64,000 bases of DNA, from the NCBI RefSeq assembly GCF_000026545.1, contig NC_011601.1; one strand, 5' to 3'. Positions 1,966-6,362 of this stretch are shown piece after piece. The notes below the pieces were generated by a model, which searched no databases, was not told the DNA's origin, and saw only the letters and a program-made list of their open reading frames with translations. The translations under genes were made by a program, and so were the position numbers. Source of the stretch: Escherichia coli O127:H6 str. E2348/69. Lineage in GTDB: Bacteria; Pseudomonadota; Gammaproteobacteria; Enterobacterales; Enterobacteriaceae. How positions within the stretch are numbered: position 1 is the first letter of the stretch; the number at the start of each line of letters is the position of its first letter.

Positions 1966-2566
1966 TTCGTTGTTACCACCATCAGCCAGCAATTTCATGC
2001 GTTGTGCCGAAGCCGTCGGAACACGCATTACAGACATTCCGGTAGACCTCAACACGCTGTGGTCGCCGGACACCTGCCCGGTGCATCTGCTGCCTTATCT
2101 CGCCTGGGCATTTTCCGTTGACCGCTGGGATCGCAACTGGCCGGAAGAGACAAAGCGACAGGTGATTCGTGATGCATGGCTGATACACCGACACAAAGGG
2201 ACCATCAGCGCACTGCGAAGAGCCGTGGAGCCTCTCGGCTACCTGATTGAAGTAAAGGAGTGGTGGCAACTCAACGAGGAACCGGGAACATTTCGCATTG
2301 TTGTCGGAGTACTTGATCAGGGCATCACCGATGAAATGTATCAGGAACTTGAGCGCCTTATTGCGGATGCAAAACCAGTAAGTCGCCATCTGACGGGGCT
2401 GGCGATCAGCCTGAGTGTGAACGGAAAGATTTTCGTTGGTACGGGATGCTATCACGGCGATGCCCTGACGGTTTATCCCTACACCCCGGAGTCCATTATT
2501 GTCGAAGGGGATTATTTCCCTGCCCCAGCCATTCATTTAATTGATAATCTGAGAGTAAACGCATGA
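1958..2566 (+). CDS. tail protein, P2 gpI-like
   Basis: ORF 1925..2566; in-frame ATG at 1958 overlaps J stop; size and position match P2 I. Confidence 0.75.
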   Translation: MSNSLLPPSASNFMRCAEAVGTRITDIPVDLNTLWSPDTCPVHLLPYLAWAFSVDRWDRNWPEETKRQVIRDAWLIHRHKGTISALRRAVEPLGYLIEVKEWWQLNEEPGTFRIVVGVLDQGITDEMYQELERLIADAKPVSRHLTGLAISLSVNGKIFVGTGCYHGDALTVYPYTPESIIVEGDYFPAPAIHLIDNLRVNA

Positions 2567-4128
2567 CAGTGAAATACTACGCCATTCTGACTAATCAGGG
2601 CGCGGCACGACTGGCTAACGCGACGATGCTCGGCAGTAAGCTGAATCTGACGCAAATGGCCGTTGGTGATGCAAATGGTGTGTTACCAACACCAGACCCT
2701 GCACAAACAAAACTGATTAACCAGAAACGCATTGCACCGCTGAATCTTCTGAGTGTTGACCCTAACAATCAGAGCCAGATTATTGCGGAGCAAATCATCC
2801 CTGAAAACGAGGGAGGATTCTGGATCCGTGAGATTGGTCTTTATGATGATGAAGGTGTACTCATTGCGGTGGCAAACTGCCCGGAAACGTACAAACCGCA
2901 GTTGCAGGAAGGCAGTGGACGCACCCAGACTATCCGCATGATTCTGGTTGTCACGAACACCGAAGCCATCACGCTGAAAATCGACCCGTCTGTGGTTCTG
3001 GCAACCCGCAAATATGTGGATGATAAAATCTCAGAGCACGAACAGTCACGACGTCACCCGGACGCCTCGCTGACCGTAAAAGGTTTTACTCAGTTAAGCA
3101 GTGCAATTAACAGTGAATCAGAAACACTGGCCGCAACACCGAAAGCGGTTAAGGCTGCATATGACCTGGCTAACGGGAAATATACCGCCCAGAACGCCAC
3201 CACTACACAAAAAGGAATTGTTCAGCTCAGTAGCGCCACGAACAGCACGTCTGAAACGCTGGCAGCGACACCAAAAGCTGTTAAGGCGGTAATGGATGAA
3301 ACGAACAAGAAAGCACCATTAAACAGCCCGGCACTGACCGGAACGCCAACAACACCAACAGCGCCACAGGGGACTAATAGTACCCAGATCGCAAGCACGG
3401 CTTTCGTTATGGCCGCGATTGCCGCACTTGTAGATTCGTCACCTGATGCACTGAACACGCTGAACGAACTGGCTGCGGCGCTGGGCAATGACCCGAATTT
3501 TGCGACCACCATGACTAACGCGCTTGCGGGTAAGCAACCGAAGGATGCCACCCTGACGGCGCTGGCAGAGCTTGCTACATCAGCAGATAAACTCCCATAT
3601 TTTACAGGGGCAGATCGTGCCGCGTTAACCGCGTTGACAAGTGTTGGACGTGCCATTCTTGGTAAAACCAGCACTCAGGGAGTTCTTGATTACCTTGGTT
3701 TGGGGGAAGGCTCTGCACTGCCCGTTGGTGTGCCCGTTCCGTGGTCCTCAGCAACACCACCAACGGGCTGGCTGAAATGTAACGGTGCAGCATTTTCTTC
3801 TGAAATGTATCCCAGACTGGCAAGGGCTTATCCCACCAATAAATTACCGGATTTACGCGGTGAATTTATCCGTGGCTGGGATGATGGGCGCGGGATTGAT
3901 GCGGGACGTACCCTGCTTTCAGGGCAGGATGGTACAAGTTTTTCTCATTACGGAGGTAATTTCGACATTGGGTCTGGTCATTCAATCAATAACTATGACC
4001 AAATTGTTTCTAACCAACCAGGCTTTTCCCGTTTTTCATTTGCAGGGCCTTCACGAGGTGATGGGGTTAATTATGTAACCATTCGTCCTCGTAATATTAC
4101 GTTTAATTACATCGTAAGGGCAGCATGA
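2563..4128 (+). CDS. tail fiber protein, P2 gpH-like (constant N-terminal part fused to C-terminal cassette A)
   Basis: 521 aa ORF; internal duplicated SETLAATPKAVKA motif typical of tail fibers; C-terminal 140 aa begin with the GLGEGSALPVGVPVPW repeat shared with two other cassettes. Confidence 0.85.
   Translation: MTVKYYAILTNQGAARLANATMLGSKLNLTQMAVGDANGVLPTPDPAQTKLINQKRIAPLNLLSVDPNNQSQIIAEQIIPENEGGFWIREIGLYDDEGVLIAVANCPETYKPQLQEGSGRTQTIRMILVVTNTEAITLKIDPSVVLATRKYVDDKISEHEQSRRHPDASLTVKGFTQLSSAINSESETLAATPKAVKAAYDLANGKYTAQNATTTQKGIVQLSSATNSTSETLAATPKAVKAVMDETNKKAPLNSPALTGTPTTPTAPQGTNSTQIASTAFVMAAIAALVDSSPDALNTLNELAAALGNDPNFATTMTNALAGKQPKDATLTALAELATSADKLPYFTGADRAALTALTSVGRAILGKTSTQGVLDYLGLGEGSALPVGVPVPWSSATPPTGWLKCNGAAFSSEMYPRLARAYPTNKLPDLRGEFIRGWDDGRGIDAGRTLLSGQDGTSFSHYGGNFDIGSGHSINNYDQIVSNQPGFSRFSFAGPSRGDGVNYVTIRPRNITFNYIVRAA
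3685..3710 (+). promoter_or_regulatory. putative invertase crossover site A (hix/gix-like) at start of cassette A
   Basis: Sequence ...ccttggtttgggggaagg... marks start of ~225 bp repeat; weaker dyad than site B. Confidence 0.4.
3695..3920 (+). repeat. repeat copy A (~225 bp, direct) encoding conserved N-terminal 75 aa of tail-fiber C-terminal cassette
   Basis: Near-identical to 4134..4360 (direct) and reverse complement of 5475..5696. Confidence 0.85.
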
Positions 4129-4149
4129 AAACGTTGGTTTGGGGGAAGG
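4124..4149 (+). promoter_or_regulatory. putative invertase crossover site B (hix/gix-like)
   Basis: catGAAAACgtTGGTTTggggg resembles the AAACC..GGTTT dyad of Hin/Gin sites as recalled; sits exactly at repeat boundary. Confidence 0.45.
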
Positions 4150-4360
4150 CTCTGCACTGCCCGTTGGTGTGCCCGTTCCATGGCCCTCAGCCACGCCGCC
4201 AACGGGATGGCTGAAATGTAACGGCGCAGCATTTTCTTCTGAAAAGTACCCAAAACTGGCAAGGGCTTACCCCACCAATAAATTACCAGACTTACGCGGT
4301 GAATTTATCCGTGGCTGGGATGATGGGCGAGGAATTGATGCGGCACGCGCTTTATTGAGC
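4134..4360 (+). repeat. repeat copy B (direct relative to A)
   Basis: Sequence identity with copy A visible by eye over about 225 bp. Confidence 0.85.
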
Positions 4361-4615
4361 ATTCAAAACGGGATGTTGGAAAAACACCGCCATATTGTTG
4401 TAGCTAACGATGGATATGACACAAAGGATGAATGGGAGTTGGCCACGATTTTCAAAAAAACATATACGCAAGGCAGGGGGCTTGATGCCACAAATACAGG
4501 AGGGAGTTTGATTCCATCACCAACGCTTCATTCACGAGGAAGTATTGGTAACACAGGTGGTAGTGAAACCCGCCCCCGCAATATTGCATTTAACTATATC
4601 GTGAGGGCGGCTTAG
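4139..4615 (+). CDS. alternative tail-fiber C-terminal cassette B (promoterless, lacks fiber N-terminus)
   Basis: 158 aa ORF begins MGEGSALPVGVPVPW and ends PRNIAFNYIVRAA, same architecture as C-terminus of gpH. Confidence 0.6.
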   Translation: MGEGSALPVGVPVPWPSATPPTGWLKCNGAAFSSEKYPKLARAYPTNKLPDLRGEFIRGWDDGRGIDAARALLSIQNGMLEKHRHIVVANDGYDTKDEWELATIFKKTYTQGRGLDATNTGGSLIPSPTLHSRGSIGNTGGSETRPRNIAFNYIVRAA

Positions 4616-4621
4616 TTATAT

Positions 4622-5233
4622 TCAACTGGCTGCTGCCAGTGGTATTTCCGGCAAGTTGATATCTGGTGCCATGTTTATATCCATTGCGTTCAGCGCGTCT
4701 ATATAATCCAGCACGGCATTAAGCCGGGTGGTTTCTGCCTGCGTCAACTTCCGCCCGGCCTGCAACTTCAACTGAATCAGACTTATGGAAGCCATTGCCG
4801 CATCAGCCAGTGACTGGCGCTTGGTTTCTGCCGCTTCTACTGCAGCACGATGTTGTGCCTCAGTATCTGTCACCCATTTTTCACCATCCCATTTATCGTA
4901 TGGTGTTAACGGGGCGATAGTGGTTGTATTTTTCGGGTAGTCACCCAGCGCCGTGATTTCTTCGGTGTTTCCCGTGTCAGTGCTATAGACGGTTTCACCA
5001 CGATGGTCTGGCGCATACTCCCATGAGCTTAAATTCTCCGAACGGCGGATAGCATAGCCCGCTTTATGTGCGCCCGGGGCATCTAAACAGGAATTTGCCG
5101 GAATACCGACACCCACAGCAAGATATTCAGTTGATTCGGAAATATATTCCCGTGTCTCACCATCATAGTTATAAACGACGATGTTTCCTGCCTGTACGGC
5201 AATAAGGTCATCATTTAATATCGCGTTATTCAT
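4622..5233 (-). CDS. tail fiber assembly protein (Tfa/gpG-like chaperone)
   Basis: 203 aa ORF immediately downstream of cassette C on minus strand; size and position typical of Tfa. Confidence 0.65.
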   Translation of the reverse strand: MNNAILNDDLIAVQAGNIVVYNYDGETREYISESTEYLAVGVGIPANSCLDAPGAHKAGYAIRRSENLSSWEYAPDHRGETVYSTDTGNTEEITALGDYPKNTTTIAPLTPYDKWDGEKWVTDTEAQHRAAVEAAETKRQSLADAAMASISLIQLKLQAGRKLTQAETTRLNAVLDYIDALNAMDINMAPDINLPEIPLAAAS

Positions 5234-5700
5234 TATGCGGTTCTCACAATATAATTGAAGGCAATATTGCGTGGGTGGGTTTCATTCCCCTCTGAGGATT
5301 CCGTTCTGTATTGACTGGTAAATCTACCGTTAATTGCACCTTGCCGGACGGCGTTATCTGTCGACAACAGACTATCCCCTCCTTTGTCATTTGGCACCAA
5401 CACCGTGTTATCCCACGCATCCCATGACCGAATATTATGATAATGACTTCCTGTTAACCACCCCTGCATGCTTAAGATGCCCCTTCCGGCATCCACCCCG
5501 CGCCCATCATCCCAGCCACGGATAAATTCACCGCGTAAATCCGGTAATTTATTGGTGGGGTAGGCCTTTGCCAGTTTTGGGTACATTTCAGAAGAAAATG
5601 CTGCACCGTTACATTTCAGCCACCCTGCTGGCGGTGTGGCTGAGGGCCACGGAACAGGTACACCAACGGGCAGTGCAGAGCCTTCCCCCAAACCAACGTT
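5233..5700 (-). CDS. alternative tail-fiber C-terminal cassette C (inverted orientation)
   Basis: Minus-strand frame encodes GLGEGSALPVGVPVPW...PRNIAFNYIVRTA; the annotated Met upstream is probably not a real start. Confidence 0.6.
   Translation of the reverse strand, partial: NVGLGEGSALPVGVPVPWPSATPPAGWLKCNGAAFSSEMYPKLAKAYPTNKLPDLRGEFIRGWDDGRGVDAGRGILSMQGWLTGSHYHNIRSWDAWDNTVLVPNDKGGDSLLSTDNAVRQGAINGRFTSQYRTESSEGNETHPRNIAFNYIVRTA
5475..5696 (-). repeat. repeat copy C (inverted relative to A and B)
   Basis: Reverse complement of copies A/B. Confidence 0.85.
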
Positions 5701-5706
5701 TTCGTT
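5681..5706 (-). promoter_or_regulatory. putative invertase crossover site C (hix/gix-like), inverted, about 60 bp upstream of invertase gene
   Basis: Reverse complement reads cgAAAACgtTGGTTTgggggaagg; position next to invertase as gixR is to gin in Mu. Confidence 0.45.
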
Positions 5707-5762
5707 TTTATCCCTACCTATACCAACTCTGTATTTTTCACGAAACAAAGAGGATGTTTTTT

Positions 5763-6362
5763 ATGCAAATTGGCTATATTCGTGTGTCAACAAATGACCA
5801 GAACACGGATTTACAACGCAATGCACTGAACTGCGCAGGATGTGAACTGATTTTTGAAGATAAAATCAGCGGAACGAAATCAGCCAGACCGGGATTGAAA
5901 AAACTGCTCAGAACGCTATCAGAAGGAGATACGCTGGTTGTCTGGAAGCTGGACAGACTGGGCAGAAGTATGAAACACCTGATCACGCTTATTGAGGAAT
6001 TGCGGGAAAAAGGTGTTAATTTCCGTAGTCTGACGGACAGCATTGACACATCAACACCCATGGGGCGTTTCTTTTTTCACGTCATGGGGGCTTTAGCCGA
6101 AATGGAACGTGAATTAATTGTAGAGCGTACACTGGCCGGGCTGGCAGCAGCACGCGCACAAGGACGCATTGGCGGACGTCGCCCGAAGTTGACAAAAGAA
6201 CAACACGAGCAAATAGCGAGGCTGATTAAAAACGGTCATGACAGGAAACAACTGGCGATCATTTACGACATCGGCATATCGACGATTTATCGTTATCACC
6301 CTGTAGGCGATATACAGGCTGAAGAAACAACCAGGCAGACTCAGGAAAATAAAAACCGCTAA
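5763..6362 (+). CDS. serine DNA invertase, Gin/Pin/Cin/Hin family
   Basis: N-terminus MQIGYIRVSTNDQNTDLQRNAL and internal VVWKLDRLGRSMKHLI, SLTDSIDTSTPMGRFFFHVMGALAEMERELI match Gin/Hin as recalled; C-terminal HTH region. Confidence 0.9.
   Translation: MQIGYIRVSTNDQNTDLQRNALNCAGCELIFEDKISGTKSARPGLKKLLRTLSEGDTLVVWKLDRLGRSMKHLITLIEELREKGVNFRSLTDSIDTSTPMGRFFFHVMGALAEMERELIVERTLAGLAAARAQGRIGGRRPKLTKEQHEQIARLIKNGHDRKQLAIIYDIGISTIYRYHPVGDIQAEETTRQTQENKNR

Follow-up and report, generated by a model that had tools for sequence, protein, structure and literature searches.

A P2-type tail-fibre gene and its domains

The DNA considered here (the window) is a stretch of 64,000 nt from Escherichia coli O127:H6 str. 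E2348/69, contig NC_011601.1, and all coordinates refer to it unless amino acid or gene positions are given. Near its beginning lies a tail-fibre gene of a P2-like prophage, located downstream of homologues of the P2 genes V, W, J, and I. The DNA of this ORF is 100% identical to positions 1849776-1851341 of NZ_LT827011.1 (E. coli O127:H6 E2348/69), annotated as "phage tail-collar fiber domain-containing protein". The gene and the features of its shaft are as follows:

2563..4128, + strand: P2 gpH-homologue tail-fibre gene with the repeat (ORF, 521 aa)
2563..3012, + strand: PF12571, "Phage tail-collar fibre protein, N-terminal", aa 1-150 (Pfam E 1.7e-62, profile 1-150/150)
within 2563-4128, + strand: two copies of PF03406, "Phage tail fibre repeat" (Pfam E 6e-42)
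3064..3195, + strand: PF03406 unit 1, aa 168-211, ASLTVKGFTQLSSAINSESETLAATPKAVKAAYDLANGKYTAQN (own unit profile E 7e-31, profile 1-44)
3091-3159, + strand: conserved core of unit 1, aa 177-199, QLSSAINSESETLAATPKAVKAA
3196..3327, + strand: PF03406 unit 2, aa 212-255, ATTTQKGIVQLSSATNSTSETLAATPKAVKAVMDETNKKAPLNS (own unit profile E 8.7e-31)
3223-3291, + strand: conserved core of unit 2, aa 221-243, QLSSATNSTSETLAATPKAVKAV
aa 389-436 of the same ORF, + strand: Collar domain PF07484 (Pfam)

The protein is recognized as a phage tail fibre by its PF12571 and Collar domains, by matches to PHROG tail-fibre families, and by its position after V, W, J, and I, while no NCBIfam model matches it. The PF12571 domain is presumed to be the baseplate-attachment end of the fibre. 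The earlier note had called the protein gpH, and this label is right: it has the PF12571 N-terminus, its gene lies 3′ of the gpI homologue in the order V-W-J-I-H, and its residues from about 151 to 380 are nearly identical to those of P2 gpH. A same-strand gpG/Tfa gene directly downstream, another P2 gpH-type trait, is absent from this locus.

The two units in protein and in DNA

Two peptides of about 22 residues, said in the earlier note to recur some 40 codons apart, are both present as quoted there. These peptides, the cores QLSSAINSESETLAATPKAVKAA and QLSSATNSTSETLAATPKAVKAV, are identical at 20 of 23 residues and are offset by exactly 44 codons, and each belongs to a longer unit of 44 residues; the two units are contiguous head-to-tail and share 27/44 residues. 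PF03406, a family of tandem units of about 40 residues, matches the protein in two stretches with a score of 141.4 bits against a gathering cut-off of 22, the best stretch (aa 213-253) lying in unit 2. The units match the family end to end (1-41 of 42), far over the curated cut-off, with the same period of about 40 residues (here exactly 44) and the same placement inside a tail-fibre protein; there is no difference of substance, and the units of E2348/69 represent the plain two-copy case. The motifs are thus, on the evidence of these profile matches, the conserved cores of two copies of PF03406 (Phage_fiber_2; InterPro IPR005068) and already known.

Two further ORFs overlap the repeat, one of 63 aa (3101-3292, + strand, in another frame) and one of 150 aa (3222-3674, − strand); neither shows any sign of being a gene.

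The comparison with P2 H that the earlier note had proposed as a check gives a clear answer, since P2 gpH (NP_046775.1) holds two near-identical units at the same place (aa 169-212 and 213-256), complete with the unit-specific tails AAYDLANGKYTAQD and MDETNKKAPLNS. Both proteins have the same N-terminal family and stand in the same V-W-J-I-H gene order, and over aa ~151-380 the DNA is 88% identical. The N-terminal domain of P2 gpH is much more diverged than the shaft (about 40% protein identity over the first 100 alignment columns). The distal tips are unrelated: the E2348/69 fibre ends in a Collar-domain, T4 gp37-like tip within an invertible cassette region, whereas the tip of P2 is fixed and followed by gene G.

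The repeat had also been claimed to exist at the DNA level. It does, with 50/69 identical nucleotides in the cores (72%) and 79/132 over the full units (60%), although this hardly exceeds what the protein likeness would bring about. In a null model with synonymous codons redrawn from the gene's own usage, 71.6 ± 3.9 identical nucleotides are expected between the units against the 79 observed, and 10.2 ± 2.4 identical codons against 12/27. At 12 of the 20 conserved core residues, the synonymous codons differ. The longest exact in-register run shared by the copies is 8 nt (20 nt in P2), no period-132 array is seen at the repeat by Tandem Repeats Finder, and a DNA repeat search has recovered only a 17-nt fragment. 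Given these identities, the 8-nt run, and the codon null, the repeat in the DNA follows almost entirely from that in the protein.

A function of the repeat in DNA or RNA, as a site or an RNA element, has been considered and rejected, conservation being confined to the protein level.

Unit number, origin, and possible role

Such repeats had been described as common in tail fibres, and this is amply borne out. Besides the existence of a curated Pfam family, a search of 50%-identity cluster representatives with a 196-residue shaft segment that includes the repeat has given 27,237 relatives (E ≤ 0.001), a single unit used as tblastn query has matched 426 phage records (from P2-like, lambdoid, and Stx phages, from P1/P7, and from Mu), and 2,150 of 5,426 complete E. 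coli genomes carry DNA of the repeat region, at up to 11 places per genome. In Mu S (gp49; PDB sequences 5yvq, 9ki1, and 8ju3) and in the N-terminal part of lambda Stf, a unit with the same invariant core is found at aa 112-151 and aa 356-395, respectively; these fibres differ from that of E2348/69 in having a single copy and other N-terminal attachment domains. In the P1 gene S record M81956.1, a 132-nt (44-codon) "repeated element a1" and a partial "a0" are annotated in the constant segment. According to our own profile, a full unit coincides with a1 and the tail of a preceding partial unit with a0; P1 thus carries a full unit and a partial one, after which comes a different, 222-nt repeat "b", absent from the E2348/69 gene. 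The P1 record reportedly belongs to the work of Sandmeier, Iida & Arber 1992 (J Bacteriol 174:3936), and motifs common to such fibres are said to have been treated by Haggård-Ljungquist et al. 1992 and by Sandmeier 1994.

Because a word-indexed homologue search returned mostly contig-end fragments, copy numbers were taken instead from annotated phage records and from an exhaustive search of representatives. Units in annotated fibres were counted with a profile of our own built from the units:

Mu S: 1 unit
lambda Stf: 1 unit
Stx2a phage fibre: 1 unit
P1 S: about 1.75 units
P2: 2 units
186: 2 units
E2348/69, ORF 2563-4128: 2 units
SW9: 3 units
fiAA91-ss: 3 units
vB_EcoM-12474III: 4 units
P2DC1: 4 units

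The run of units begins at aa 169 in P2, 186, SW9, fiAA91-ss, 12474III, and P2DC1 and at aa 168 in the E2348/69 gene, and in the P2-like fibres it holds the 44-residue register; from fibre to fibre, the unit number changes by whole steps of 44 residues. Among 149 representatives, the number of units ranges from 0 to 13, and successive units most often start 44 aa apart (81 cases) and next most often 56 aa apart (32 cases).

The alleles with three and four copies are the most instructive. Their internal units are 83-92% identical in DNA to their neighbours, with exact runs of 33-38 nt. When typed at the 52 sites where units 1 and 2 of P2 differ, they appear unit-2-like at the 5′ sites and unit-1-like at the 3′ sites, the switch falling at about nt 63-84 of the unit, within the SETLAATPKAV core. 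Chimeras with the head of unit 2 and the tail of unit 1 are what one would expect when unit 2 on one molecule crosses over with unit 1 on a second; judging from this pattern, new units arise through unequal crossover inside the SETLAATPKAV core. The 3- and 4-copy P2-like fibres therefore document unequal crossover as a route of fibre length change.

Thus, the statement of the earlier note that these repeats can mediate length variation by recombination stands for the relatives (1-4 units in the fibres listed, 0-13 among representatives, with chimeric internal units) and probably does not extend to the E2348/69 allele itself. Exact runs of about 20-30 nt or more are needed for homologous recombination. 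Having 64% identity over the first 117 nt of each unit and a maximum exact run of 8 nt, the two copies of ORF 2563-4128 would make a poor substrate, and recombination between them is unlikely. Sampled alleles from E. coli genomes that are at least 98% identical to the E2348/69 gene show no length change and no copy-number variant.

Two other accounts of the repeat may be dismissed almost completely. That the two motifs resemble each other by chance or through low complexity might be entertained for a fibre sequence in which A, S, and T abound, as they do in the repeat region. The probability of this is negligible, since the best 23-mer self-match after shuffling the protein (30 shuffles) reaches only 7-10 identities against the 20/23 observed, PF03406 is matched with an E value of 6e-42, and the motif is kept across hundreds of phage records. 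Scarcely more credit is due to a recent tandem DNA duplication in the prophage fibre gene, acting as a recombination hotspot that actively generates length variants in this lineage. The units are indeed adjacent and in register, and unequal crossover does occur in the repeat of relatives, but a recent event would have left high identity with exact runs of about 20-30 nt or more, whereas here one finds 60% identity over 132 nt, a longest run of 8 nt, synonymous sites no more alike than chance, and no array detectable by Tandem Repeats Finder. Moreover, both units recur in P2 and 186, each with its own characteristic tail, which makes the duplication older than these phages and no peculiarity of the E2348/69 gene, and close alleles (at least 98% identical) retain its length. 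With the DNA likeness lying at about the level predicted from the protein, the duplication is an old one whose protein has been conserved by selection, and not a recent DNA repeat. Very probably, then, the two motifs represent an old PF03406 duplication, in which each unit would be a length module and the conserved core would serve as a patch for fibre exchange.

As a length module, each unit would form a self-contained structural element of the presumably trimeric proximal fibre, and fibre length or reach would grow by a fixed increment with each unit; we infer from the sequences that one unit may equal one increment. An AlphaFold2 monomer model of aa 150-300 from a 31-sequence alignment is of low confidence (mean pLDDT 48, pTM 0.16), and so is a model of aa 164-262 in triplicate, linked by 25-residue Gly/Ser stretches and based on 25 matched rows (pLDDT 30). 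What recurs in both is only a short helix, on PKAVKAAYDLA. When the PDB was searched by sequence, with the whole protein or the unit profile as query, the unit was found only in the Mu S entries mentioned above (5yvq, 9ki1, 8ju3); the Mu cryo-EM paper mentions only that "the N-terminus of gp49" was built and does not specify how far the N-terminal model extends. The unit is very widespread, yet none of the structures returned by the PDB searches is known to show it resolved. A 2021 paper on repeat modelling lists PF03406 among the families without known structure (PMC8078820), and according to Ghosh et al. 2012, the "Pf2" domain is poorly known in both structure and function (PMC3368898).

Rotary-shadowing EM of a collagen-like fibre led the latter authors to suggest that Pf2 forms a bead between collagen stalks (PMC3368898), and such a globular shape speaks against a length module in the form of a thin shaft. 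It may tentatively be proposed, with doubt outweighing confidence, that the PF03406 unit folds on its own into a trimeric "bead" and that unequal crossover adjusts the number of beads so that the reach of the fibre suits the thickness of the host's surface layer (O-antigen or capsule); if so, the unit count would be a simple, evolvable dial of host range. Still less probable is a role of the core as a binding motif, at which a chaperone, a baseplate protein, or a surface glycan might dock, or as a flexible joint; the copies would then tune avidity or flexibility instead of length. Units of unrelated phages share 14 invariant positions (A1, K6, G7, L11, S17, E20, A23, A24, T25, K27, A28, V29, K30, and D34), a stronger conservation than in many fibre shaft repeats, and both the bead suggested by EM and the helix placed on PKAVKAAYDLA by the two low-confidence models would suit a binding element. 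Against it, no ligand or partner is known, and the units occur in fibres borne by quite different baseplates and tails (the myoviruses P2, Mu, and P1, the siphovirus lambda, and an Stx phage), which disfavours a specific baseplate partner, while a structural module accounts better for fibres with as many as 13 units. The preferred reading is still that of an old duplication with the unit as a length module.

Since the family is curated and P2 has the repeat in the same place, its occurrence in the E2348/69 gene is of little import in itself and should be regarded as a textbook feature of enterobacterial phage tail fibres.

Mosaic borders and an apparent invertible tip region

The second part of the preferred reading concerns the exchange of fibre parts. 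The gene is a mosaic: its nt 1-465 are 98.7% identical in DNA to Escherichia phage 500465-2, and its nt 451-1048 are about 88% identical to P2, Wphi, and others, with no P2 DNA match reported 5′ of nt 451. A mosaic junction lies just 5′ of the repeat, at about 3013-3033 of the window, and many E. coli matches start there too. Matches in E. coli genomes also start or end at the borders of the conserved block and of the units (query positions about 64-84, 216-221, 260, and 338), and the fibres to which they belong bear P2-type, lambdoid Stf-type ("prophage tail fiber N-terminal domain"), or P1-plasmid-type annotations. That conserved motifs are patches for fibre reassortment is an old idea, and these borders fit it, suggesting that the conserved core may serve as a shared homology patch for the exchange of distal parts among P2-like, lambdoid, P1, and Mu fibres.

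Most of the close database matches to the repeat segment (matches P0001-P0120) are protein fragments from contigs 200-650 nt long, which suggests that the repeat motif, present in several prophages per genome, is a common breaking point in short-read assemblies. With its DNA in many prophages per genome, the motif is likely both an assembly breakpoint and a junction for fibre mosaicism.

Other widely shared fibre motifs are located 3′ of the repeat (3328-3597, aa 256-345), among them SPALTGTPTTPTAPQGTNSTQIASTAFV and an ALVDSSPDALNTLNELAAALGNDPNFATT segment, the latter matching "tail collar fibers gp4", PDB 9d93, over aa 275-342 with an E value of 2.9e-9. A 9-nt micro-repeat, AACACCAAC, present 2.1 times at 3342-3360, codes for TPTTPT.

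The most interesting feature nearby is not the repeat but the tip-switching region just downstream. The distal tip of the fibre gene lies within 3687-6362, which looks like an invertible region of the Gin/Cin/Min type. It contains three homologous blocks of about 220 nt, each coding for a Collar-domain tip, together with the following elements:

3687-3908, + strand: tip block 1, in frame in H
4126-4347, + strand: tip block 2, start of the promoterless ORF 4139-4615
4622-5233, − strand: Caudo_TAP assembly gene (tfa), inside the invertible region
5465-5703, − strand: tip block 3, start of ORF 5233-5748
5763-6362, + strand: serine invertase (Resolvase + HTH_7)

The homology of the three blocks starts at ...AAAACGTTGGTTTGGGGGAAGG, a sequence similar (17/26 by eye) to the gix site of Mu, TTATCCAAAACCTCGGTTTACAGGAA, at the boundary of the G segment. 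Since two of the blocks lie in direct orientation, one can conceive of deletion products as well as inversion products. Neither of the plus-strand tips (3709-4128 and 4139-4615) is followed by a tail-fibre assembly gene, and the only tfa nearby (4622-5233, − strand) belongs to the minus-strand tip; in place of an assembly gene, the expressed tip (3687-4128) is followed by the promoterless tip cassette. The expressed tip resembles the receptor-binding tip of T4 gp37 (PDB 2xgf, E 9.6e-13), including the C-terminal ...NI(A/T)FNYIVRAA, and also a "short tail fiber" (PDB 9cuy).
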